Below, in pieces: positions 613-20,323 of a stretch of DNA of 26,436 bases. Source of the stretch: a virus (Duplodnaviria > Caudoviricetes). The position numbers and the translations under genes were made by a program. Position 1 is the stretch's first letter; each line of letters begins with the position of its first letter. The stretch is taken from the IMG/VR virus record IMGVR_UViG_3300006639_000021, positions 1 to 26,436 of that record. One strand, written 5' to 3'. The notes under the pieces are model-generated. The model was given only the letters and a program-made list of their open reading frames with translations, was not told the DNA's origin and ran no database searches.

Positions 613-889
613 ATCCAAAGTCAAGGCGAAAGCCGTTGACATTATTAAAAAACATAAGGGGTACTACTTCTACCCCGTCACGGGAGGCTACGGTCGTTCA
701 GGTATCCCCGACATCATCGTGTGTCATCGTGGGAAGTTCTTGGGCGTGGAGTGCAAAGCCGGGTTCAACAAGCCCACCGCACTGCAAGAGCAGGAGATGG
801 CAAAGATCGAACAAGCGGGCGGTGCCGCAATGGTGGTGCGAGAAGACACCCTTGATCTGCTCGATCGCTGGCTCTGGGAGAACACGTAA
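596..889 (+). CDS. VRR-NUC family nuclease / Holliday-junction resolvase-like protein
   Basis: PESKVK...GIPDII...FLGVECKA...PTALQ...GG motif set of phage VRR-NUC proteins. Confidence 0.88.
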   Translation: MANTPESKVKAKAVDIIKKHKGYYFYPVTGGYGRSGIPDIIVCHRGKFLGVECKAGFNKPTALQEQEMAKIEQAGGAAMVVREDTLDLLDRWLWENT

Positions 890-2205
890 TGGAGATAGTA
901 ACGCTAGATTTCGAGACGTTTTATGACCGTGAGTACAATCTAACCAAACTCACTACCGAAGAGTACATCCGCGACCCACGCTTTGAAGTCATCATGCTCG
1001 GCGTGCGCTGGCCGGATGGATCGAAGGAGGTCGTCTCTGGCACCCACCTTGAGATCAAGCAGTGGTGCGATGCGGTGCCGTGGGGGCAGTACGCGATCCT
1101 GTGCCACAACACACTCTTCGACGGTGCCATCCTGTCGTGGAAGTTCGGGGTCAAGCCCCGCGTGTGGCTCGACACCCTCAGCATGGGACGCGGCATGTTC
1201 AGTGCCCGGAACAACTCCTTGGCGTCGCTGGCCAAGCGCTACCATCTGGAGGACAAGGGTACCTATGTCATGAACATGATGGGGCGTAGGCGCTCTGACA
1301 TGTCTCCGGGGGAGTTCAAACAGTACGCCGAATACTGCCTGCTCGACGTCGACCTGTGCCATGACTTGTGGCACCTCATGTCCAGTGGCTGGTACAACCT
1401 GACCGAGGGGGACATTCGAGGCCCCTACCCTCTTGAGGAACTGAAGCTCATCGACCTGCACATTCGCATGTTCACCGAGCCGATGCTCCGGCTCAACCGA
1501 GGCAAGCTGGAGACACACCTCGCAGCGGTGCGGGCCCGCAAGGCGAACCTGCTGTGTGCCGCCGCAGTGGACGTCGAGTCGCTGATGAGCAACCAGAAGT
1601 TCGCAGAGGTGCTCAAGGGCTTTGGCGTTGACCCACCGACGAAGATCAGCCCGACCACGAACAAGCCCACCTTTGCCTTCGCCAAGACCGACCCGGGCAT
1701 GAAGGCCCTCCTCGAACACGAGGATGAGCGGGTGCAGGCTGTGGCTGCTGCACGACTTGGCGTCAAGAGCACCCTGGAGGAGACGCGCACGGAGCGCTTC
1801 ATCGGGATCGCAACCCGGGGCGGTGCCTTCCCCGTGCCGCTCAAGTACGCCTATGCGCGAACAAAAAGGTCATCTGGCTGCCTAGTAGCCGGAACGCAGG
1901 TCTTAGTGTATGATCCAGGCCAGCGCGGTGTCGTGAGCAAGCAGATCGTAGATGTGCTAGCCGATGACCTCGTATGGGACGGAGAGGCATTCGTTGAACA
2001 CGAAGGGGTTCAGTTCAGCGGGTACCGCGAAGTCATATCTTGGGATGGCGTAACAGGAACACCAGAACATGTCGTATTCACCGAATCTGGCGAGATCAGC
2101 TTACTTGAAGCAATGCAGAGACAATGTAGAATCAAAACTACTAGAAATCCTTCCGACGACGACGTTGACTCCGCTAGAGTCGTTGCACACCACCTACGCA
2201 AGTAG
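889..2205 (+). CDS. polA: DNA polymerase A N-terminal precursor (3'-5' exonuclease + thumb; 330-aa extein) fused to an N-intein
   Basis: ExoI LDFET, ExoII HNTLFD, ExoIII YCLLD. The extein ends ...YARTKRSSG, the first half of the TGRxSS..NLQN motif, and then intein sequence begins with CLVAGT. Confidence 0.92.
   Translation: MEIVTLDFETFYDREYNLTKLTTEEYIRDPRFEVIMLGVRWPDGSKEVVSGTHLEIKQWCDAVPWGQYAILCHNTLFDGAILSWKFGVKPRVWLDTLSMGRGMFSARNNSLASLAKRYHLEDKGTYVMNMMGRRRSDMSPGEFKQYAEYCLLDVDLCHDLWHLMSSGWYNLTEGDIRGPYPLEELKLIDLHIRMFTEPMLRLNRGKLETHLAAVRARKANLLCAAAVDVESLMSNQKFAEVLKGFGVDPPTKISPTTNKPTFAFAKTDPGMKALLEHEDERVQAVAAARLGVKSTLEETRTERFIGIATRGGAFPVPLKYAYARTKRSSGCLVAGTQVLVYDPGQRGVVSKQIVDVLADDLVWDGEAFVEHEGVQFSGYREVISWDGVTGTPEHVVFTESGEISLLEAMQRQCRIKTTRNPSDDDVDSARVVAHHLRK
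1879..2205 (+). other. N-terminal half of a split intein (IntN, 108 aa)
   Basis: Block A Cys1 CLVAGTQVL. Hint-domain IVDVLADDLVWDG. Block B TxxH (GTPEHVVFT). Stop at 2203-2205 with no HN terminus. Acidic: 18 D/E vs 10 K/R by hand count. Confidence 0.9.
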
Positions 2206-2839
2206 AATACTGATGCGGTGCCAATGTGGCACCGAGAAACGCTTTAGAGTGTCTGACCTGATAGCAGGAACAAAGAAATGCCTACCGTGCTCTTCTAAAG
2301 AGCGGGCCGCTAAAAAGACACCGGAGATGCGCCGCGCTTTTGCTGTGAAAGGGTCCCAGGCCGCGCTCAAGGCGAATACTCAAAAACTGGAGTCAGATCC
2401 GTTGCGTGCGCAGTTCGGGCATGCACAACTTGAACTAATATCCAAAATGGGGATAAGTGCCAAAGGGCGGTGCACGAATAAAAACAACGCTGCGTATGCA
2501 AACTACGGGGGTAGAAGTATAGAGTTTAAGTTCCCTACGATTCGCGCATTTGCTGAATGGGTGCTACAAAATTTGGGTCCCAGACCAAACAGCGCGTATT
2601 CTATAGACCGCATAGACAACAACGCGCACTACGAACCCGGGAATCTTCGATGGGCCACTAGAACTGAGCAAGCGCGCAATAAACGCATGTACAAACGAAC
2701 TGCTCAAGGGGAACGTATACGAAGTCTGCAAGTCCAAAGGCCAGATTTAACATATGAGACCTTGAGAATTTGGATTAAACAGGGTGCATCTGACGATGAA
2801 ATTCTACAAAGGGTGAAGTATGCTCGTCCCGGTATATGA
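2069..2839 (+). CDS. free-standing HNH-type homing endonuclease with N-terminal Cys-rich domain
   Basis: RCQCG...CLPC Cys motif and RCTNKNNAAYANYGGRSI...SIDRIDNNAHYEPGNLRWAT..EQARNKR, the common phage HNH-like family. AT-richer than the host gene. An alternative in-frame ATG lies at 2213. Confidence 0.82.
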   Translation: MSYSPNLARSAYLKQCRDNVESKLLEILPTTTLTPLESLHTTYASRILMRCQCGTEKRFRVSDLIAGTKKCLPCSSKERAAKKTPEMRRAFAVKGSQAALKANTQKLESDPLRAQFGHAQLELISKMGISAKGRCTNKNNAAYANYGGRSIEFKFPTIRAFAEWVLQNLGPRPNSAYSIDRIDNNAHYEPGNLRWATRTEQARNKRMYKRTAQGERIRSLQVQRPDLTYETLRIWIKQGASDDEILQRVKYARPGI

Positions 2840-2897
2840 CATAAAGAACTGCGGGCCTCGCCACAGGTTTGTGGCTAACGGCAAGCTAGTTCATAAT
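2820..2897 (+). other. C-terminal half of a split intein (IntC, 26 aa)
   Basis: MLVPVYDIKNCGPRHRFVANGKLVHN|S: block F VYDI, block G His-Asn, +1 Ser at 2898-2900. Net basic. Confidence 0.92.
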
Positions 2898-3773
2898 TCA
2901 GACGGTATTAACTTACAAAATCTACCGTCACGAGGGAGTACGAATCTTAAGGCCTGCATCGAAGCACCCCCGGGCTACGTCATCATCGACTGCGACTCCT
3001 CGAACATCGAGGCGCGGGTGCTCGCGTGGCTGGCGGGGCAGGAAGATCTGGTCAACGACTTCGCCAGCGGCGTTGATGTGTACTGTAAACAATCAACCCG
3101 CATTTACGGGCGCGCTATAACGAAGGCAGATAAGCTGGAAAGATTTGTAGGAAAAACGGTAATTTTAGGCTGTGGCTACCAAACCGGTGCAGGCAAGCTC
3201 AAGGCGACGCTCAAGGCAGCAACACCGTCGGTCGACCTCGACATCGTAGAGTGCGAGAAGATCATCAACACCTACCGTGGCAGCGTGCCGTGCATCGTTG
3301 ACCTGTGGGCACGGGGAGAAGACGCCATCCGCTCTATGTACAACGATCAGAGTATGTGGCTGGGGCGTGAGGGTGTGGCGCTGATCGAAGGGAAGAAGGG
3401 CATCAAGCTACCCAGCGGACTCTACATCAGCTACCCACAACTCCACCGTGCACAGGGTGAGCGCTTCGTTGAGTGGCGATACAAGGACGACACAGGTGTG
3501 GTGAACATCTACGGTGGGAAGCTCATCGAGAACCTCACCCAAGCACTGGCGCGTATCATCGTCATGAGTCAGATGCTACGCATCTCCCGTAAGTTACCCG
3601 TCAAACTCACTGTGCATGACAGCGTGATAGCATTGGCTCGCGAAGATGAGCGCCAAGCGGCGAGGGCTTACGTCGAGTCCTGCATGCGCTGGGTGCCTGA
3701 CTGGGCACAGGGGTGCCCGCTCAACTGTGAATCGAAGTGGGGCTACAACTATGGAGAACTGCATGACGACTGA
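2820..3773 (+). CDS. polA: DNA polymerase A C-terminal precursor (palm/fingers) with an N-terminal C-intein
   Basis: After HN the extein reads SDGINLQNLP. Motif A DCDSSNIEAR, motif B RFVGKTVILGCGY, motif C VHDS. SD-like AGGGTG precedes ATG 2820. Confidence 0.92.
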   Translation: MLVPVYDIKNCGPRHRFVANGKLVHNSDGINLQNLPSRGSTNLKACIEAPPGYVIIDCDSSNIEARVLAWLAGQEDLVNDFASGVDVYCKQSTRIYGRAITKADKLERFVGKTVILGCGYQTGAGKLKATLKAATPSVDLDIVECEKIINTYRGSVPCIVDLWARGEDAIRSMYNDQSMWLGREGVALIEGKKGIKLPSGLYISYPQLHRAQGERFVEWRYKDDTGVVNIYGGKLIENLTQALARIIVMSQMLRISRKLPVKLTVHDSVIALAREDERQAARAYVESCMRWVPDWAQGCPLNCESKWGYNYGELHDD

Positions 3774-3966: not shown

Positions 3967-4646
3967 GCTTGCCCGGACCTTGGTCGTTCTCGTCTCTCAA
4001 GTCGTTCAAGACTTGTCCAAAAAAGTTTTTTGAGATTAAGGTCGCAAAGAACTACAAAGAGCCTGAATACACCGAGGCCACGCTGTACGGCTCTAACTTC
4101 CATGAGGCAGCAGAACACTATGTCCGGGATGACAAACCGCTGCCCCCGGAGTTCTCTTATGTTAGAGGGCAGCTTGACACACTCCGGGCACTGCCTGGAG
4201 AGAAGTTCTGCGAGTACGAGATGGGGCTGACGAAGGACTTCGAGCCCTGCGGGTTCAAAGATCCGAACGTCTGGTGCCGGGGCATCGCTGACCTGCTCAT
4301 CGTCAACCGTGAGACGGGCACGGCGCGGGTCATCGACTACAAGACCGGCAAGTCGGCCAAGTACGCGGACACTGCGCAGCTTGAACTCATGGCCTTGATG
4401 GTCTTCAAACACTTCCCGGAGATCAAGAGAGTCAAGGCAGGCTTGCTGTTCGTCGTGGCAAATTCGTTCAAGCCAGCGGAGTACACCGCTGAGCAAGAGA
4501 AGATCTACTGGCAGCAGTGGATGGCTGACGTCAAGCGTCTTGAAAATGCACACCGTACAGGTGTGTGGAATCCGAATCCTTCGGGGCTGTGCAAACGGCA
4601 CTGTGTGGTGATGTCTTGCCCGCACAACGGGCTGAATGGAGGTTGA
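3963..4646 (+). CDS. PD-(D/E)XK Cas4/RecB-like exonuclease
   Basis: WSFSSL...CP, RGIADLL, IDYKTGK, QL..MA, and C-terminal LCKRHC...CPHN Cys cluster. Confidence 0.88.
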   Translation: MSLPGPWSFSSLKSFKTCPKKFFEIKVAKNYKEPEYTEATLYGSNFHEAAEHYVRDDKPLPPEFSYVRGQLDTLRALPGEKFCEYEMGLTKDFEPCGFKDPNVWCRGIADLLIVNRETGTARVIDYKTGKSAKYADTAQLELMALMVFKHFPEIKRVKAGLLFVVANSFKPAEYTAEQEKIYWQQWMADVKRLENAHRTGVWNPNPSGLCKRHCVVMSCPHNGLNGG

Positions 4647-4647
4647 A

Positions 4648-4914
4648 ATGCCTTACAAAAACAAGGCCGACCGGGACCACAAGAAAGAGTACGCTGACTT
4701 CCTAGCCAATGGTGGACGCGCCAAGCAGAGCGAAAGGCAGAGAGCCCGACGTGCCTGGGACAAAGAGAACGGCAAGGCATCGCGGAAAGGTAAGGCTCTG
4801 GATCACGTTGTCCCTATCAAGGACGGTGGCAAGAGCAAGCCGGGGAACGTGAAGCTCAAGAGCTTCAGCGCAAACAGCGCACGCAATTTCAAGGGACCGA
4901 AGTCCGGGGGCTGA
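4648..4914 (+). CDS. small HNH-fold protein
   Basis: GGAGG SD favours ATG 4648. LDHVVPIKDGG...GN...AN.. is an HNH-like pattern. Very basic. Confidence 0.72.
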   Translation: MPYKNKADRDHKKEYADFLANGGRAKQSERQRARRAWDKENGKASRKGKALDHVVPIKDGGKSKPGNVKLKSFSANSARNFKGPKSGG

Positions 4915-12915: not shown

Positions 12916-12991
12916 CCGTCAAAAGTTCGGCCCGTTGACTGTGCGTCTCCTAGTTAGCCCCGGGTTGAGCTTGCTCCCCGGGGCGCTTTTT
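12916..12991 (+). ncRNA. candidate ~75-nt small RNA carrying an anti-SD sequence
   Basis: Bounded by the extended -10 and the terminator. 5' GTCAA/TTGAC stem, then an unpaired GCGTCTCCTAG. Confidence 0.35.
12957..12991 (+). terminator. intrinsic terminator between the convergent arms
   Basis: GCCCCGGG (12957-12964) / CCCGGGGC (12977-12984) stem followed by GCTTTTT. Confidence 0.8.
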
Positions 12992-15900
12992 CATCTAGAC
13001 GCGTCCATCATCCGCTGCTCCTCGGTAACCTGACGACGCAGCCGGTACACATCCCGGGCAAGGTCGTTTTGTTGGGTACGCAGGTCGTTGATGATCACGC
13101 GCCGCTCTTCAGGTGAGAGATCAGTCATCTTGTCGATAGCACGGGCCTGGGCGTTGAGAGCACGGATCGCCTCCATCGTGCTACGCACCTCGCTACGTAC
13201 CACGTACAGGCCGAAGTTGTCCTTGAGGTACTTCTCTGCATCCTCAGGGTTATCCTTCAGCTTGCGGTTGTAAGAGTTGTAGACCTGCTCGACAGACCTG
13301 TCAAGGTTGTAGATCTCGTCAAGGTAGCGCATGCCGACCGGGTCCTTCATCACAGCCGAGGCACCTGTTAGCTGAGCTGCAATCGTCTGGTGCAGGGGGC
13401 GGTCCGTCCGCGTGGGGTTGACCATGACATCAGCAACGCTCAAGGCGATACCTGCGGACATACCGAACATGCCCCGCACCAAGTTCTCCAGCATGATCGG
13501 GGAAGTCTTCAGCGACTCGATGCCCGTCGATGTGGCAATGTCAGTCAGAGTTCTGGACGCAGCCTTCATCGTCTCGGACGTGCCGGTACCGTAGCGCTCG
13601 GACGGGTCGAGGGCCAACTGCGCCTGAGACTCCAGTGGGCGTCCAAGGAAGAACGAGTAGTTCATGAGGTTCTCAAGAACCGGCTTGACGATCTGCGGGG
13701 TGAGGTTCGGAGCCCAGAAGAGGTCGACACCGTTGAGCATCAGTTCCTTCAGCACCCGGATACCGTCACGTTCTTCTGGTGTGCCTTGGAACTTGAAGTA
13801 CTGCACCACACGCTCGGGGATGGCTTTGAAGAAGAACGACAGTTCAGGAGGGATCGGAATGCCGGGCACGAAGCCAAGCTCCTTGCCGCCCGGGATGATC
13901 CAGTTCCGATCGCGGACGTGGTCCGGTTGTTTCTGGTATTCCTCGTCGTCCGACATCATCACCGCGTAGCCGAAGCCCATCACAGTCAGCACCCCCATCC
14001 GCTTGTAGAACAGGTTGCGGGCGTAGCCGGTCGTCGCGCCGATGCTGCGCTGGGCGCTCGGGTTGCCTGCCGCTGCCAGCAGGAGCTTGTCCATCGAGCG
14101 GGCGTAGGCGTTGAAGAACGGGATGGTGCGGATGAGGTAGTCGGCAGTCCTCGACGCACCTCTGCGGCTGAAGTTGATGATCTCCCGGGCGCGTAGTTCA
14201 GCCAGTGCCCGGTCACCGGTCTCCTTCAGCGTCTGGTTGTAGATCGCCTCACGCACGGCGACGTCCGAGGCCTTGGCACCGGCCTCCATGATGCGCAGGA
14301 TGGCCTTGCCGATAGAGCGCGGCGCGAGCCCGGTCTCTTCCAAGATGTTCTTGACGTTGCCACCGATGACGGTGTCATAGGCAGGCACCACACCCGACCT
14401 GGCAAGCTCTCGTACAGCGGCGGACTCCGTACCCCTGATTTCATTCCACCAGTTCAGGGGGAAGTTCAGCAAAATGCGGGGGAGCATCGCGGCAGGGTTC
14501 TTGACCCCCGAGTGCACATATGCCCGGGTGATGTCATCGAAGACCTGCTTGATAGCGAACGGCGGCGTAGCGGTCACACCGATGCGCAGGTACTTCGAGA
14601 ACTTCTGAGCCCCTCGAATCATGAGGGGGATGTCAGTTTTCGGTGTACCGATGAACGCCGCAAGGTTGGCAGGGTCGGGAACGTAGAAGACTTTCTTCTG
14701 TCCGTTGACGTAGGCGTCAACAAGTGCCCCCTGCTTATTGTTGTCAACAGCAGCACGGTTTGGCACAAAGTCAGCGTAGCCAAGCAGCTCCATCTCAGGC
14801 AACGCACGGCCAACTGCGTCTGCCTTCATCGACTCATTAACCATCCAATCCATGAGCTTCGAGAAGCTCTCAACAGGGTTCTGAGTCTGACGATCTTGAG
14901 AGCCTTTGTACTTTGCAATCTCCTTGAACGCAGTCAGCTTTGCGTTAGAGCCCCCACCCTGCGGGAGTGCCAGATTGTCGAAGTCGTCAATCCGAGAGAA
15001 GGGGACGTAGCCTATCGCGTCCTTCCAGACCTGGGCTTTGGCTGGCGTGATGCGACCAGCCTCAACCATTGCGTCGATCATGGTGAAGCGGATTTGGTCC
15101 AGCTTCTCACTTACCCCTTTGATGAACGCATCGGATTGGAAGGCTTGCTCTGCCGTTGCAGCCTCTTGGGGGGTCAAGAAGAAGTCGAGTCCAGCGGCCT
15201 GCGGAGAGTTCATCAACTCGTATTCGCGATGCGAAGCCAGCAACTCACCGACGTCTTTCAGGAACGTCTCGGGCTTGATCCCGCGTACCTTGGCCTCAGC
15301 GGCGATCTCTTCGAGCACCTTGTTGTAGCTGATCTGCTGCCCGTTGTAGGTCAGCGTGTCAACGCTGAGCAACCCGGTCGGGTCACGCCGCATCGTGCCG
15401 TACTTCTTGACTTCGGTGGCGAAGCGCGGTGCATCCAGTGCCCGGGACAGCAAGAACACCGGGTTGTAGTCCCCCCGGTTGTCGCGGATACGGTTGCCGT
15501 AGGCTCTGGTGAAGACGTAATCCACACCCGCCAACTGGTCCATCGCCTGTGCACGGAATCCGAGCGCTAGGTTGCCACCAAGTTTGGCTTGCAGGGACTG
15601 ACCCAGCGTGCGCTCTTCCTTTTCTCCGACGAGGGAGCGGTACCGAGTCTGCCCGGTGGCAGTGCTTGGCTTGATCCCCGCTTGAATCGCATCGCGGATG
15701 AAGGCTTGCAGAGGGTCGAGGCCCATCGTGCGGATGGCACGGGCCAGCCCCGGCATGCCGATCCGGTCAGCGAGTCGTGCGAAGAAGTTCCCCAGTTGCC
15801 GCAGCGTGGAGCCGGTGAGCTTGGTCGCCTCTGCCATCTCGGCAAGGGCTTCCTCCACTGCCAGCACGCGAGCTTCCTCGGGGCTCATGCCCTCGGTGTC

Positions 15901-18879
15901 CTTCTTCCCAGCCGCAGACGCGAGGTAGGCATCCGCTGTCTGACGCACCGCTGCGCTCTGGTTGTAGAACTTCGTCATCAGCGCCCGGTATTCAGCGGGC
16001 GGCAACAGGTTGGCTAGACCCTTGTGGAAAACTTCGTGGAAGATGGTCTTCTGCCCCTCGACACCATCAGCGATGCCGCTGCGGAACAGGTAGATCTTCC
16101 CACCCTGGAGTGCACCGGCCCTGGAGCCCGGGGCCTGCTTGTTGTCAAAGTCCGTGACGTCATCGAGAATGGTGATGTCGACGCTGCCACCCAGTGCCCG
16201 CTCGATGTCCGCAACGATCTTGCGAAGTTGGGCGTCAGAGACGACACCTTGGACGAGCGGGGTTTGAGGAATGGTGCGGTACTTAGACTCGTCCCCGTAT
16301 CTAGCGATCAGATCCTGCGCAGCCTTGATACTCTCGGGTCTGTTCTTGACCCGCTCACCTTTTCCGTCAGTATGTTGTCCGTAGAACGTGCCATACTCGC
16401 GCTGAGAAATCCTGCCCGAGATGCGTTCGATTTGTTCAACGAGGTCAGCGCGTTCAGCGGCGGTGAGTTTGGCGGGGACCTGCGCCTCCCGACTAGACCG
16501 TAACGCTCTAGCTTCATCAGAAATAGCTACACCACTTTCAAGTGGCGGCAGCTTAAATCCTAGTTTTTCAAAAGCGTCATAAAGAGCAGTACCGACACCC
16601 TTGCGACGGTCAGCTTCACGCACAGACACATCTATAGGACCGCCCCCAGGCATGTAAGTCAACCTGCCGGTTTCTTCCCCTTTGTCATTTGTAGCTACTA
16701 ATGAGCGCGGTTCCCCGTACTGCGTCCTAACAAGAGGCGCAAATGCGTTAGGGGCTGAAACCTGCGATATTCGTATTTGTTCGCCGGTTTTGAGTGTAGC
16801 TACTGCAACGGGCTCGCCTGTTTCTCTGCCAGCAGGCTGTCCAGCATCCTCGACAGGAGGAACCACTCCGCTTGGCTCAGGGGCTCCAGCCCCTTCGGTG
16901 GGGGTGACGGCAGCGGGTCCGCCAGCCACTGGAGCGCCTGCTCCACTTGGTTGTTCGTCAGGTTGGACAGCACTTGGAGTCTCCGGTTCAGCCGCCACGG
17001 GCGGCGTCGGTTCGGGCACCGTAGGTGCCGGGGTAGGTTCAGCCGCCACGGGCGGCGTCGGGGTGGGTTCAAACCGAGCCTTGAACTCGGTCAGCTTGGC
17101 ACGCGATTCTTCGCTGCCAAGGCCTTTGGTCAGGTACTTCTCGATGTCCTCAAGGATGGCTTGTCGCTGCCCAGCATCCTCCATGTCCTTGCCAAGCATG
17201 CGCCGGTAGATCGGCTGCTTCTTGGTGATACCCAACGCCTCGATGTCAGTGGGTTGTAGACCCGTCGTCGAAGCAGCAGGGGCACCCACCTTACGAACGG
17301 TGGGCTCTTCGACAAGCGCTGTTGGCGCCGTAGGCGGTGTCCACCGCCCTCCACCGATCTCGACCAGACGGGCATCAAGCTCATCGAACTTCCGACGCGA
17401 AGGGCTCTTCGGTGCCGGGGGCTTGCCATTGACCAGCATGTCCTCACGCTGCTGGCGCAGACGCGCAATCTCTTCGCGACGTGCTTGGGTAGGATCGAAC
17501 TCCTCGCGGGGCGTCACAGCCGCTACGGCTGCTTCATCAGCAGGAAGGAACCTATCTGCACCCCGCTTGTTGGCTACGCGTTGCTCGACATCTTCGCGCT
17601 GCCTGCGGCCCCGTTCAGCTTCCAGGGCCTTGATCGCTTCGTCGCGATACTTGGTAGGGCGCTCCTGTTTCAGAGCCTCAATCGCCTGCGTCAGCTTTGG
17701 GTAAGCCTCGTTGATGGGCAACCCCAGCGTCTCGTCAATCGTGGATTGGGCAGTGTTGGCCGGTGCCGCTTTCGCAGCCTCCGCCGCCTGACGCTCGGCC
17801 TCTCGCTTGGCCTTGACGACGTCGATCTCGGTCTGGCCCGGGGCAGCAGGCTCGGCTCCCGGTTCACGTACCGGTGCACCGCCTACCAGCGTGCCAAGAC
17901 CCAAGCCGCCGAGGGCACCAAAGCCAGCCGCAGCACCCGCGCCTGTGAGCGGAGAGATCGTGGGGTCGACCTCTGCCATGCCAACGCCCCTGGCGATGGC
18001 TCCTCCGGCCTCTTCGATCGACTCAGTGCCCGCCTCTCTGAGGCCTGTGGTGATGCGCCCTGCACCGGGCACGCCGGGTAATCCAGCCAGCCTGCGTTCG
18101 ATTGCCGAGCCGCCCGGAATCCGAGAGGTGGCTACGGAGATAGCCCCGGCTTCCAGCCCTGCGACACGCGCCTTCTGCTCGGCCACAGCCCGAGCTTCGT
18201 CCTCAGGCATGCCCTGCTTGATGGCAAGGTCGTACACCGCTTGGTAGGTGTCAGCGCCGATGTCAGCACCCTGCATCGCAGCGCCTGTGCCCACGGCAGC
18301 GGCAGCAGCACGGTTCTTGAGGGCATCAACAGCAGCGTCCCGTGCAGTACCTTCAGCGGCAGCTCGCACCGCGCCACGCCCGAGCATGGTGGTGACTTTG
18401 ACCGCAGCGGCAGGGCCGAGGAGTTGGGGTAGCTGCTCTGTCAGGAACGTCGACAGGAGCGCCGGGTCTTTGATCGTCTGCCCGACGGCAGTGGCGAACT
18501 CAGCGAGGAAGCCATCCTTCTCAGCCTCACTCAGTGCCCGACTGCGCAGCGCCTCGCGGGCTTTCAGCCCAGCGGACTTGAGACTTTCACCGTATTCGGA
18601 CAGGGCTTCGCCGGGAGCCGCAAGCGCTTCGCCAAGGCCCCGCCCGCCTGGGATGAGTCCGACAAGCTGACCCGGGAAGGCCAGTGTGGCACCGGTACCC
18701 CGAGCGAGAGCAGCGCCAATGTCCTGAGCGGCTTCGCCCCAAGTGCGTTCGGTTGAGGGGGGTTCGGGGGCAGCAGGCCCCGCCATTTGACTGGCAATCT
18801 GAGCCAGCCTCCTTGCCGCTTCTACATCACCCGCCGCATCGGCGTTTCTCAGGGCTTGGAGGACTTGGTTCAGATTCAT
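12991..18879 (-). CDS. large polyvalent internal virion / ejection protein (1962 aa) with GNAT, zincin-like HExxH and LPD38-like C-terminal regions
   Basis: Start set at ATG 18879, just after the upstream stop. Gly/Ala-rich N-terminus, DRRKGVGTALY, FHEVFHKG...EEALAE, C-terminal INFSRRG..IPFFNA...RNWIIP..IPIPPEL. Confidence 0.8.
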   Translation of the reverse strand: MNLNQVLQALRNADAAGDVEAARRLAQIASQMAGPAAPEPPSTERTWGEAAQDIGAALARGTGATLAFPGQLVGLIPGGRGLGEALAAPGEALSEYGESLKSAGLKAREALRSRALSEAEKDGFLAEFATAVGQTIKDPALLSTFLTEQLPQLLGPAAAVKVTTMLGRGAVRAAAEGTARDAAVDALKNRAAAAAVGTGAAMQGADIGADTYQAVYDLAIKQGMPEDEARAVAEQKARVAGLEAGAISVATSRIPGGSAIERRLAGLPGVPGAGRITTGLREAGTESIEEAGGAIARGVGMAEVDPTISPLTGAGAAAGFGALGGLGLGTLVGGAPVREPGAEPAAPGQTEIDVVKAKREAERQAAEAAKAAPANTAQSTIDETLGLPINEAYPKLTQAIEALKQERPTKYRDEAIKALEAERGRRQREDVEQRVANKRGADRFLPADEAAVAAVTPREEFDPTQARREEIARLRQQREDMLVNGKPPAPKSPSRRKFDELDARLVEIGGGRWTPPTAPTALVEEPTVRKVGAPAASTTGLQPTDIEALGITKKQPIYRRMLGKDMEDAGQRQAILEDIEKYLTKGLGSEESRAKLTEFKARFEPTPTPPVAAEPTPAPTVPEPTPPVAAEPETPSAVQPDEQPSGAGAPVAGGPAAVTPTEGAGAPEPSGVVPPVEDAGQPAGRETGEPVAVATLKTGEQIRISQVSAPNAFAPLVRTQYGEPRSLVATNDKGEETGRLTYMPGGGPIDVSVREADRRKGVGTALYDAFEKLGFKLPPLESGVAISDEARALRSSREAQVPAKLTAAERADLVEQIERISGRISQREYGTFYGQHTDGKGERVKNRPESIKAAQDLIARYGDESKYRTIPQTPLVQGVVSDAQLRKIVADIERALGGSVDITILDDVTDFDNKQAPGSRAGALQGGKIYLFRSGIADGVEGQKTIFHEVFHKGLANLLPPAEYRALMTKFYNQSAAVRQTADAYLASAAGKKDTEGMSPEEARVLAVEEALAEMAEATKLTGSTLRQLGNFFARLADRIGMPGLARAIRTMGLDPLQAFIRDAIQAGIKPSTATGQTRYRSLVGEKEERTLGQSLQAKLGGNLALGFRAQAMDQLAGVDYVFTRAYGNRIRDNRGDYNPVFLLSRALDAPRFATEVKKYGTMRRDPTGLLSVDTLTYNGQQISYNKVLEEIAAEAKVRGIKPETFLKDVGELLASHREYELMNSPQAAGLDFFLTPQEAATAEQAFQSDAFIKGVSEKLDQIRFTMIDAMVEAGRITPAKAQVWKDAIGYVPFSRIDDFDNLALPQGGGSNAKLTAFKEIAKYKGSQDRQTQNPVESFSKLMDWMVNESMKADAVGRALPEMELLGYADFVPNRAAVDNNKQGALVDAYVNGQKKVFYVPDPANLAAFIGTPKTDIPLMIRGAQKFSKYLRIGVTATPPFAIKQVFDDITRAYVHSGVKNPAAMLPRILLNFPLNWWNEIRGTESAAVRELARSGVVPAYDTVIGGNVKNILEETGLAPRSIGKAILRIMEAGAKASDVAVREAIYNQTLKETGDRALAELRAREIINFSRRGASRTADYLIRTIPFFNAYARSMDKLLLAAAGNPSAQRSIGATTGYARNLFYKRMGVLTVMGFGYAVMMSDDEEYQKQPDHVRDRNWIIPGGKELGFVPGIPIPPELSFFFKAIPERVVQYFKFQGTPEERDGIRVLKELMLNGVDLFWAPNLTPQIVKPVLENLMNYSFFLGRPLESQAQLALDPSERYGTGTSETMKAASRTLTDIATSTGIESLKTSPIMLENLVRGMFGMSAGIALSVADVMVNPTRTDRPLHQTIAAQLTGASAVMKDPVGMRYLDEIYNLDRSVEQVYNSYNRKLKDNPEDAEKYLKDNFGLYVVRSEVRSTMEAIRALNAQARAIDKMTDLSPEERRVIINDLRTQQNDLARDVYRLRRQVTEEQRMMDASR
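16985..17061. repeat. 26-bp direct repeat encoding PTPPVAAEP in a Pro-rich linker
   Basis: GGTTCAGCCGCCACGGGCGGCGTCGG at 16985-17010 and 17036-17061. Confidence 0.85.
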
Positions 18880-18880
18880 A

Positions 18881-20323
18881 TCACTTCGGTGCTGTGTACC
18901 GCTCGATGAGTGCCCTGTCTTCAGCGGACAAGGTAGCGCCCGGGGCCGCACTGGCTTGACCGGAGGTTGAACCCATTCTAGCTACACCATACTCCTGTGC
19001 AAGCTGGTTAAGTGCCGCCTCGGCATTTCGGACGCGTTCTTGGGCTCTAGGATTGCTCGGCGCAACAGCCAGAAGTTTCACCGCTTCTTCGTATTCTTTA
19101 GCCAAACCGGAGTACTTCGGGTCTTGACGCATAGTCCGCATACGCGTTAGTGCAAGGGATTCCTCCGAGGAACCACTGGCGGGTCGTGAGGCAGAGGTAG
19201 CAGAAGCATCCGCGCTGATCCGGCGAGTCTCCAACTCGTAAGACTTTTCGTTCATAGCAGCGCGGATTTCCGCCGCCTTGAGCTTGGCTCGGCGTTCACC
19301 CTCAACGTCCTTCTCCGCACGTGCCAGACGTGCTTCAGCTTCCGCTTTGGCGAGTTCCTGACGGAGCTTGACGAGGTTGGCCTTAGCTTCCCTTTGTTCC
19401 TTCTTCTGGCCTGCACGGGCTCTGACCAGACCAGTAGCAGCACCCATCAGCGTGTCACCGAGACGGTCTGTACCCTTCATGCCCTCAAGGATTGCGGACA
19501 TGAGTTCAGGGTTCTCGAAGATGTTCAGCGCTTGCTGCGCTTCAAGCTCCCGCATCTGCTGTTCCGCAGGGTCCATCGACGCTTTCAGCATCGCGTCATA
19601 GGCTTGCCGTGCTTCAAGGACTCGGGGGTCTACCGCTGCGGTACCCTCAACGTCCTTTGCCAACTGCTCGGTCATCCGAAGGTACTCTGCCAATCCGCCC
19701 CTCTGCGGTGCGGCAGCACCACCAGCACCCCCAACACCGGCACCACCAGCAGTGCGAGCGACAGGGGGGCGAGCAGACGGAGTAGGGCCAGCGGGCGGCG
19801 TAGCCGCAGCGGCAGCGGCGAGTCCAGCGGGAGCCGCGAAAGTAGGCGGACGGTTAGGGTCTCGATACGCCTGCTCCAATGCCGCTGCGTCCCTCGAAGC
19901 TGCGCGTTCTTGCGCTCCGGGACGCTCACGAGGTTGCGGGACGTTACCTCCCAAACGCTCTATGATGTAGTCAACAATGGGTCTGTCGAGCAGCCCTTCC
20001 GCCACGAGGTCTTCATCAAGACCTTCAAGGTCAGCTTCCGCCAGACCACCCTTATCGAACGCCACCATCCCACCACTGGCCATCCCTGGCACGGGCTGCT
20101 GTGCCTGTATCTGCTGAAGTGCCATCTCCAACTGATCTTTGATGGTAGGCGGCATCTGCTGCGCCTGTGACATCGCCCGCTGGCCTTGGGCAGCACGTCC
20201 GAGGTTCGCTGTCTTGACAGCCTCATTCAGCGCGAGCAGTTGTTGAAACGGCTGCGGTTGAGACGCCATCGGATTGGGGTTACGGGGGGCGATAGCCCCA
20301 AGTCCAGCGTTCATCATGGTCAC
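18881..20323 (-). CDS. putative internal virion / DNA ejection protein
   Basis: Ala/Gln-rich and coiled-coil, GMASGGMVAFDKGG motif, synteny between tail genes and the large internal protein. Confidence 0.65.
   Translation of the reverse strand: MTMMNAGLGAIAPRNPNPMASQPQPFQQLLALNEAVKTANLGRAAQGQRAMSQAQQMPPTIKDQLEMALQQIQAQQPVPGMASGGMVAFDKGGLAEADLEGLDEDLVAEGLLDRPIVDYIIERLGGNVPQPRERPGAQERAASRDAAALEQAYRDPNRPPTFAAPAGLAAAAAATPPAGPTPSARPPVARTAGGAGVGGAGGAAAPQRGGLAEYLRMTEQLAKDVEGTAAVDPRVLEARQAYDAMLKASMDPAEQQMRELEAQQALNIFENPELMSAILEGMKGTDRLGDTLMGAATGLVRARAGQKKEQREAKANLVKLRQELAKAEAEARLARAEKDVEGERRAKLKAAEIRAAMNEKSYELETRRISADASATSASRPASGSSEESLALTRMRTMRQDPKYSGLAKEYEEAVKLLAVAPSNPRAQERVRNAEAALNQLAQEYGVARMGSTSGQASAAPGATLSAEDRALIERYTAPK

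Follow-up and report, generated by a model that had tools for sequence, protein, structure and literature searches.

A phage family A DNA polymerase gene apparently fractured by a split intein and an overlapping, free-standing HNH endonuclease gene

The window, by which we mean the whole stretch of viral DNA analysed (26,436 nt, positions 1 to 26,436 of IMG/VR record IMGVR_UViG_3300006639_000021; Duplodnaviria, Caudoviricetes), carries a family A DNA polymerase gene (polA; protein, PolA) that is found in two pieces with a third gene between them. Three co-oriented open reading frames (ORFs) in three frames lie at 889-2205 (438 amino acids, aa), 2069-2839 (256 aa) and 2820-3773 (317 aa). The first joins the N-terminal part of the polymerase (N-extein) to a putative N-terminal intein half (IntN), the second encodes a putative HNH-type homing endonuclease, and the third joins a putative C-terminal intein half (IntC) to the remainder of the polymerase (C-extein); the nuclease ORF shares 137 nt with IntN (2069-2205) and 20 nt with the IntC ORF (2820-2839). 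The features are as follows, with splice junctions marked here and below by a caret:

889..1878, + strand: PolA N-extein, 330 aa; spans the 3'-5' exonuclease region and the first part of the polymerase domain, ending ...ARTKRSSG
1879..2205, + strand: IntN, 108 aa; CLVAGT...GTPEH...HHLRK, with its TAG at 2203-2205
2069..2839, + strand: free-standing HNH-type homing endonuclease gene, 256 aa, assigned from PHROG matches, motif and structure model
2810..2816, + strand: purine-rich, Shine-Dalgarno-like AGGGTGA, 3 nt upstream of the IntC ATG
2820..2897, + strand: IntC, 26 aa (MLVPVYDIKNCGPRHRFVANGKLVHN), with block F Asp7 and block G His25-Asn26
2898..3773, + strand: PolA C-extein, 291 aa, beginning with the +1 Ser of SDGINLQNLP and holding polymerase motifs A-C

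The N-half ORF, whose ATG overlaps the stop codon of a VRR-NUC-like gene upstream (TAATG), ends in ...PLKYAYARTKRSSG^CLVAGTQV...GTPEH...HHLRK before its stop. The C-half ORF has its own ATG and starts MLVPVYDIKNCGPRHRFVANGKLVHN^SDGINLQNLPSRGST, so that the junction between IntC and extein reads ^SDGINLQNLP, and the two exteins add up to 621 aa (330 + 291). A family A polymerase domain was identified in the C-half by Pfam DNA_pol_A above the cut-off (expectation value, E, 1.9e-22), and the PHROG family phrog_17 (DNA polymerase) matches both the N-extein (E 7.9e-19) and the C-extein (E 5.9e-59); Pfam DNA_pol_A_exo1 reached a sub-threshold E of 0.015 on the N-half, and a megablast of 889-3773 against a phage collection returned no match. 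The G+C fraction drops from about 0.64 to 0.45-0.50 over roughly 1900-3000, the region of the insert. In most of 20 related loci, GGAG/GAGG-type purine tracts were seen by eye at the place equivalent to the Shine-Dalgarno-like sequence.

Uninterrupted alleles of the gene exist. Among the best 120 protein clusters matching the N-half ORF, the closest intein-free polymerases, P0014, P0016 and P0017, are exactly 621 aa long, equal to the predicted spliced length, and the exteins of the window are identical to P0014 at 318/330 (96%) N-terminal and 275/291 (95%) C-terminal positions. Their junction reads RTKRSSG-GDG[VI]NLQNLP, with Gly in place of the window's +1 Ser; this position is Gly in intein-free alleles versus a nucleophile in all intein-bearing ones. 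The break also aligns without gaps to the contiguous PolA of Rhizobium phage RHph_TM3_14A (636 aa) and of Pseudomonas phage Rollin (HTHRLSG-DWKLNVQNM against RTKRSSG^SDGINLQNL).

IntN comprises a splicing core of about 88 residues, the rest being an acidic/basic tail that replaces the variable loop of contiguous relatives. The residues characteristic of a class 1 intein were all found: a Cys nucleophile at residue 1 (1879-1881), block B T-x-x-H, the block F Asp, the terminal His-Asn and Ser/Cys at +1. In an alignment of 21 IntN sequences C1, G60, T61 and H64 are invariant (block B GTPEH), as are V5, Y6, D7, C11, G12, P13, A19, N20 and H25 in the 21 aligned IntC sequences; N26 and a +1 nucleophile are present in 20/20 rows that reach them (Ser in 18, Cys in 2). 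Codon-position entropies over IntN residues 1-62 are 0.48/0.40/1.29 for positions 1/2/3, and these residues appear to be under purifying selection in the IntN frame. The net charge is -8 for IntN and +3 for IntC, a polarity shared by 15/16 relatives (the exception is L019, with an IntC of charge 0).

A structure model was made for the contiguous 135-aa mini-intein of one relative (L036), which sits at the same PolA site, with the trimmed split halves supplied as the alignment. Its mean predicted local distance difference test score (pLDDT) is 86.9 and its predicted template modelling (TM) score (pTM) 0.78. In a Foldseek search of the PDB, 16/16 matches at E<=1e-3 were inteins or an intein-like BIL domain; the top match was gp41-1 (E 1.6e-5, TM 0.61/0.64), and others were NpuDnaB, Ssp DnaB, Mtu RecA, DnaX and NpuDnaE. 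On this model the family has a predicted HINT fold. In contiguous mini-inteins at this PolA site, among them P0246, P0242, P0250 and P0326, a variable loop of 22-40 residues corresponds in position to the window's IntN tail, stop and MLV. The split therefore lies in the usual endonuclease-insertion loop, and the 26-aa IntC is the entire C-terminal lobe in this intein family. The idea that the split point is non-canonical, with the IntN tail supplying a missing beta-strand, was rejected on account of this same loop.

A preliminary description of the locus had placed polA in two ORFs of different frames within 889-3773, with an IntN of 108 aa, an IntC of 26 aa and a product of about 621 aa; all of these are borne out, the last by the length of the intein-free alleles. 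It was also right in giving the C-half its own ATG and Shine-Dalgarno sequence, which lie at 2820 and 2810-2816, in listing the canonical splicing residues as present, and in calling IntN acidic and IntC basic. The HNH gene that it put between the halves is indeed there, and has to be redrawn as overlapping both of them, with a start most likely at 2069.

The reading we prefer, with a probability of about 85%, is that PolA is fractured at its TxRxSG / xxxNLQNLP motif by a mobile cassette, made up of a split class-1-type intein and a free-standing HNH gene, and that the halves are joined by trans-splicing. The three genes are likely co-transcribed, because no terminator-like site was found between them on the + strand. 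The acidic IntN and the basic IntC would associate into a HINT fold, in which Cys1, the block B Thr and His, the block F Asp, the His-Asn pair and the +1 Ser would carry out standard four-step splicing, to yield a 621-aa polymerase with the sequence ...RTKRSSG-SDGINLQNLP... at the joint. When cassette-bearing and intein-free phages infect the same cell, the HNH enzyme would cleave or nick the intein-free alleles close to the insertion site, and repair from cassette-bearing genomes would copy the cassette together with a short extein flank (homing).

Of the alternatives, the one that survives best, though we hold it to be unlikely, is that the intein halves no longer splice and serve just for non-covalent docking of the polymerase fragments. 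Fractured genes without splicing exist, Aeh1 nrdA being an example cited in the relevant passage of Dassa et al. 2009 (PMC2677866). Docking needs none of C1, T61, H64, D7 or H25, however, and these stay invariant across 21 diverged sequences, as do N26 and Ser/Cys at +1 in every row that reaches them; it also leaves unexplained why the +1 nucleophile occurs solely in intein-bearing alleles.

The split-intein arrangement recurs widely. When a large protein collection was searched with the N-half ORF, the best 120 clusters consisted of 82 full-length intein-free polymerases and 38 short N-halves; 38/38 of the latter carry ...G^C[LV].. at the identical point, and one of them is a 275-aa fragment. 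A scan of viral contigs with IntN found 39 loci, one being the window's own or a near-identical record. The same layout (IntN of 102-112 aa, a stop, a gap of 609-649 nt and an ATG-led IntC) is seen in 25 of the 38 others. In three the split lies two residues further upstream (TGRF^C) and the gap measures 877 nt, six have contiguous inteins elsewhere, and single loci have halves 21 nt apart (L022), halves 188 nt apart (L037), a contiguous 135-aa mini-intein at the same site (L036), or a contig that ends too early to classify. Across the 25 same-layout loci IntC conforms to M[LTQ]V[PA]VYDI.NCGPRHRF.ANGKLVHN, followed by Ser (Cys in one) and ..N.QN; the middle ORF was examined in 18 of these, and the remaining 7 look like near-duplicates.

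A 21-sequence IntN profile had 2,097 matches at E<=1e-3 among 1.84 billion representative proteins, 499 of them at E<=1e-10. Within the best 150 of these clusters IntN is C-terminal, as in split N-halves, in 71 and internal in 64, with 15 fragments, and the residues upstream, inspected by eye, define three adjacent insertion points within one PolA motif: TGRxSG^C, TGR[FWY]^C and T.RxSGGDK^C. The window locus is a member of a large, widespread and uncurated split-intein/HNH family that fractures phage PolA, not a rarity.

Several relatives differ in their build. At L022:4001-4440 a split intein occupies the same site with 21 nt from the IntN stop to the IntC ATG, the nuclease gene apparently having been lost. 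The 135-aa mini-intein at L036:4001-4405 (ATHRLSG^CVTSDT...KLIHN^SMSINVQNL) lies within an 874-aa polymerase. In the clade of L034:4001-5200 (also L035 and L038) PolA is split as GASRTGRF^C ... IVSN^SGRIFQPQNLP, with the 877-nt gap and both halves in the same frame, and by eye the intervening ORF has a GIY-YIG-like motif (YTIYRLTSPSGRSYVGLT) in place of HNH. Long contiguous forms at the same site (P0253, P0359, P0305) keep the intein frame open over 200+ Gly/Arg/Ala-rich, low-complexity-looking residues; they may be inteins with an endonuclease in another frame, intermediate between contiguous and split. Two or three inteins per PolA occur in L023, L026-L029, L034 and L043 and in P0313, P0317 and P0300, the positions used being the TGR motif, motif B (HN^CGYG) and a third site (HN^CVQALARI), and the C-halves of some relatives have IntC at their start and further contiguous inteins inside.

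That the polymerase gene is decaying and non-functional, the phage being defective or using another polymerase, seems very unlikely. The record, in which no second PolA was found, is about 42% complete and another polymerase might be encoded in the rest of the genome, and most close relatives are without the cassette. Decay is hard to square with exteins that are intact, 95-96% identical to uninterrupted alleles and free of stops or frameshifts, with a layout kept in dozens of diverged lineages under purifying selection, and with an IntC ORF that retains its ATG and Shine-Dalgarno-like tract in related loci.

The chance that assembly or sequencing error broke a contiguous intein with an in-frame HNH domain by two artificial frameshifts is close to nil. 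A contiguous form of this kind does exist at the same PolA motif: cultured Rhodobacter phage RcKickapoo (OP009274.1, L128) has an intein inserted as TGRSA^C ... VHN^SDNPNGQNFP which, unlike that of the window, is contiguous (321 aa) and matches Pfam Intein_splicing (E 1.5e-12) and, in frame, HNH_3 (E 4.2e-9). Its HNH is unrelated to the window nuclease, however (BLASTP E 9), and the stop, gap and ATG of the window are shared by the 25 other viral contigs. The indel check used independent assembled contigs, not raw reads: over 1700-3100, contigs of the runs X2, X4 and X9, which belong to three other studies (of wastewater, freshwater and drinking water), show substitutions only and no indels, and a single 3,555-nt contig covers the whole of this stretch with 8 substitutions. 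An assembly frameshift is excluded on the strength of these indel-free contigs and the recurrence of the layout. A joint in the X9 contig (1787 to 2979, skipping 1191 nt) was considered as an intein-free form and rejected, as one side consists of just 23 letters. The RcKickapoo intein (L128:2104-3066) is itself unannotated, the record giving its 1,248-aa protein just as 'DNA polymerase'.

Some phage DNA polymerase genes are interrupted by group I introns that carry HNH genes, but a self-splicing intron whose intein-like ends are coincidental can be set aside here, since no group I or II Rfam model matches 1500-3300 at E<=1 (there were two sub-threshold chance matches) and the two ends of the insert continue the reading frames of the exteins, code for conserved intein blocks and are predicted, from the L036 model, to take up a HINT fold.

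The middle ORF matches two PHROG HNH families (phrog_374, E 5e-30; phrog_3377, E 1.8e-26). Its product has an N-terminal helix, a zinc-ribbon-like CxC...CxxC motif, a helical region and a beta-beta-alpha motif (SIDRIDNNAHYEPGNLRWATRTEQARNKR). Across 16 sequences the zinc-ribbon cysteines C51, C53, C71 and C74 are invariant, and so are D180, R181, D183, N184, N192 and N204; the His of the HNH motif (H187) is not, being Gly in 3/16. In the AlphaFold2 (AF2) model (pLDDT 85.5), strands 177-181 and 193-197 and helix 198-208 form the beta-beta-alpha unit. Against the predicted viral structures of BFVD the model had 68 matches at E<=1e-3, several of them named HNH or homing endonuclease, with low TM-scores (0.25-0.37) as expected for an extended multi-domain protein. 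Like modular phage HNH endonucleases of the I-HmuI type, the protein has a beta-beta-alpha unit with His/Asn/Asn, an extended multi-domain build and neighbours with NUMOD-type DNA-binding modules; unlike them, it has no significant Pfam or PDB sequence match and carries the N-terminal zinc-ribbon-like motif.

The nuclease gene most likely starts at 2069, inside IntN and in another frame, as judged from a conserved ATG and peptide and from codon-position entropy. Among the HNH relatives examined, the frame is open for at least 146 nt upstream of the IntN stop in 15/17, and a conserved ATG in the overlap leads into a peptide conserved in relatives, M[SP]Y.QTPERLAYE.QCR...L..AL..T.WTPL (MSYSQTPERLAYE.QCR); in L032 and L033 the frame is equally open and the peptide absent. 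Several loci (e.g. L017 and L028) offer no alternative start codon before the zinc-ribbon motif. The entropy shifts from the upstream values of 0.48/0.40/1.29 to 0.82/0.60/0.83 in the overlap, and over the last 23 IntN codons it is 1.05/0.76/0.78, the most variable position being the third of the HNH frame. L007 is the other member of the window's clade to carry the intein, and a comparison of the two shows far fewer differences at 1969-2208 than anywhere else (0-4 mismatches per 60 nt versus about 12); nuclease residues 11-50, encoded in the overlap, have pLDDT >90 in the AF2 model. For the window itself an alternative start at ATG 2213 is possible.

Signs of mobility come from the distribution of the cassette and from its flanks. 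Among the 20 PolA loci closest to the window in viral contigs the cassette is present in two only: one is the window's own record, and the other, L054, is the contig also listed as L007; 17 of the remaining 18 are intein-free, including L046, with 98% identity in the N-extein. Compared with L046, the window has 0-7 mismatches per 60 nt over most of the exteins, including the N-extein from 930 to 31 nt upstream of the insertion. Exceptions are the 60-nt block centred on the junction, with 22 mismatches, the block after it, with 10, the first 60 nt of the gene, with 15, and the region at +150 to +270, with 18 and 24. The differences around the insertion cluster at -22 to +66 nt; most of them are synonymous and shift the sequence towards AT, and they include the replacement of Gly by Ser at +1. 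They mark two flanking features:

1857..1878, + strand: upstream flank, candidate co-conversion tract, with a run of synonymous, AT-richer differences from L046
2898..2966, + strand: downstream flank, candidate co-conversion tract, with clustered, mostly synonymous differences and the Gly-to-Ser change at +1

We read these clustered differences as what co-conversion during homing would leave; the changes would also alter the presumed target of the nuclease. One locus, L047, is intein-free with window-type flanks and GGG (Gly) at +1, and represents either a precise loss of the intein or the type of allele that donated the flanks. Both intein halves are better conserved than the N-extein in 16/16 loci compared, and the HNH protein in all but two; in L009, for example, identity to the window is 46% for the N-extein, 68% for IntN, 92% for IntC and 54% for HNH.

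A second patch of divergence lies at 3075-3170 of the window, an AT-richer stretch directly upstream of the motif B Cys (..KTVILG^CGYQTG), with 18-24 mismatches per 60 nt and several amino-acid changes relative to four intein-free relatives. L026-L028 and L043 have a second intein exactly at this motif B point (HN^CGYGMG or HN^CILGLGYG), and the patch may be what a second intein, since lost, or a homing event has left behind.

A number of results weigh against the trans-splicing cassette or narrow what is claimed for it, in addition to the incompleteness of the record noted above. Splicing, association of the halves and nuclease activity are all deduced from the letters of the DNA. A run labelled RNA-Seq (X18) was rejected as evidence of expression, as it is probably DNA and covers the stretch only in parts. 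The fold evidence comes from L036, with 43% (IntN) and 61% (IntC) identity, and a HINT fold of the window's own two chains is predicted by extension from it. In Pfam none of the 21 IntN sequences has a match at E<=1, the IntN and IntC of the window match no curated intein model, and the IntN profile found nothing at E<=1 among PDB sequences; the missing match to curated models is a limit of the models and not the lack of a defining property. For the nuclease, Foldseek against the PDB returned chance rows only (E>1), Pfam HNH_3 does not match the window protein (2/16 relatives reach E of about 0.1), and the HNH profile found nothing significant among PDB sequences. Because these HNH_3 and PDB searches came back empty, the HNH assignment rests on the PHROG matches, the motif and the model. 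Between the window and L007 the cassette DNA is about as diverged as the extein DNA, except at 1969-2208, and because the two divergences are similar a recent transfer between them is unsupported. The suggested mobility is accordingly limited to the sporadic distribution and the flank footprint, with no dated transfer.

Fractured genes with split inteins and a free-standing endonuclease gene were described by Dassa et al. 2009 (PMC2677866), in gp41, NrdA/NrdJ, IMPDH and DnaE. The window locus has what defines such genes, namely N- and C-terminal ORFs on the same strand, each with a split-intein half, and an endonuclease gene between them whose 3' end overlaps the downstream ORF. In the loci of that paper, as here, one enzyme is encoded by adjacent co-oriented ORFs, the DNA is phage-like and environmental, and the hosts are enzymes of replication or nucleotide metabolism; the 3' end of the endonuclease gene overlaps the IntC ORF by 6-69 bp in 15/26 of its loci, and by 20 nt in the window. 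The endonucleases of those loci are GIY-YIG and Vsr-like, an HNH type being predicted there as possible, and their genes have 5' untranslated regions with hairpins. The window differs in its host, PolA, in an endonuclease that is HNH and not GIY-YIG or Vsr-like, and in an ORF that most likely starts 137 nt inside IntN.

The intein resembles the characterised split inteins gp41-1, NrdJ-1, IMPDH-1 and Npu/Ssp DnaE (6riz, 6qaz, 8ubs, 4kl5, 1zd7) in the predicted HINT fold (TM 0.5-0.68 to the L036 model), in its Cys1/TxxH/Asp/His-Asn residues, in its acidic IntN and basic IntC and in a split at the endonuclease-insertion loop. It differs in having no detected profile-level sequence similarity to them, in the Ser at +1 and in the IntC of 26 aa; the IntC of gp41-1, NrdJ-1, IMPDH-1 and Npu/Ssp DnaE is 35-41 aa long. 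Contiguous phage PolA inteins, in Salmonella phage SETP/vB_SenS-Ent2, APSE P45, Streptococcus Javan phages and Pseudomonas phage MR14, are 39-46% identical to IntN over 61-83% of the query, and that of vB_SenS-Ent2 is annotated as 'intein containing DNA polymerase precursor'. Unlike the window's, the inteins of Ent2, Javan255 and MR14 are contiguous and sit at motif B (K[AV]^C...HN^C-E/G-LG.GY).

The preliminary description knew of no PolA example at this site with this type of HNH, and this still stands: no split intein in PolA with an intervening HNH gene was found in the open-access and bioRxiv literature, nor the HNH type or the 5' overlap. The pertinent section of a 2025 preprint on actinobacteriophage inteins (10.1101/2025.01.02.630785) reports out-of-frame endonucleases and one split intein, and does not treat the present case; papers on phiCbK and Mic1 were rejected as precedents, as they concern other inteins. 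The fractured-gene kind is thus known and frequent among environmental phages, and the PolA host, the HNH endonuclease and the dual-coded 5' overlap are apparently undescribed. The same description had proposed a search for contiguous and intein-free PolA alleles, which turned up both at the same motif, and a comparison of IntN and IntC with curated intein models, which drew a blank in Pfam at E<=1; the single continuous ORF that it named as a sign of an artefact did not appear in the contigs of other studies over 1700-3100.

More tentatively, and with slightly less than an even chance of being right, the locus can be described as a compact three-frame mobile unit of about 1 kb. In it the structured N-terminus of the nuclease would be coded within IntN in a different frame and the C-terminal end within the IntC ORF, which would lock nuclease and intein halves together genetically and make them hard to separate. 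The unit would belong to a very large intein family missed by curated models, which uses three adjacent points in the TGR/NLQN motif and at least three endonuclease solutions (free-standing HNH, free-standing GIY-YIG and in-frame HNH_3), and it would be a source of naturally split halves for trans-splicing, in which IntC has only 26 residues and +1 is Ser.

The locus extends the 2009 fractured-gene model to the main replicative polymerase of many phages as host, to an HNH endonuclease and to an endonuclease dual-coded with the intein; the trans-splicing mechanism itself would not surprise specialists. Its relatives make up a natural series in which to follow the gain and loss of endonucleases by inteins and the splitting of inteins by endonucleases, with members that are intein-free, intein-free with cassette-type flanks, contiguous mini-inteins, contiguous with an in-frame HNH, split pairs without a nuclease gene, and split pairs with an HNH gene or one with a GIY-YIG-like motif. 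If it is fast and orthogonal to existing pairs, the natural 26-aa IntC/Ser+1 pair is a candidate for semisynthetic ligation. As Pfam is blind to this intein and nuclease, such genes are annotated as two unrelated ORFs and a 'hypothetical protein'.

A related intein was seen outside an intact polymerase gene. Moraxella phage Mcat20 (KR093644.1, L003:3231-4163) encodes a chimeric 310-aa 'hypothetical protein' made up of a Thy1/ThyX fragment (Pfam E 9.5e-7), a remnant of PolA extein (PIPLRYASAHTGRYGG), a mini-intein and DUF3310 (E 5.8e-13). The mini-intein is contiguous, 46% identical to the window's IntN and ends in ...GKLVHN^S. The arrangement suggests that an intein entered an unrelated gene and took its PolA flank along, and the chimera may be the basis of phrog_26005.

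Two further ORFs of the window are of note. On the - strand, 12991-18951 encodes a 1,986-aa protein weakly similar to virion RNA polymerase (phrog_2206, E 1.5e-11, residues 129-502) and also to two families of unknown function, which suggests an N4-like or KPP25-like podophage backbone. On the + strand, 4636-4914 encodes a 92-aa protein that matches phrog_4590 (unknown function; E 1.3e-12) and has, by eye, an HNH-like motif (ALDHVVPIKDGGKSKPGNVKL); the replication module may encode in it a further small HNH protein, a second one that is free-standing.

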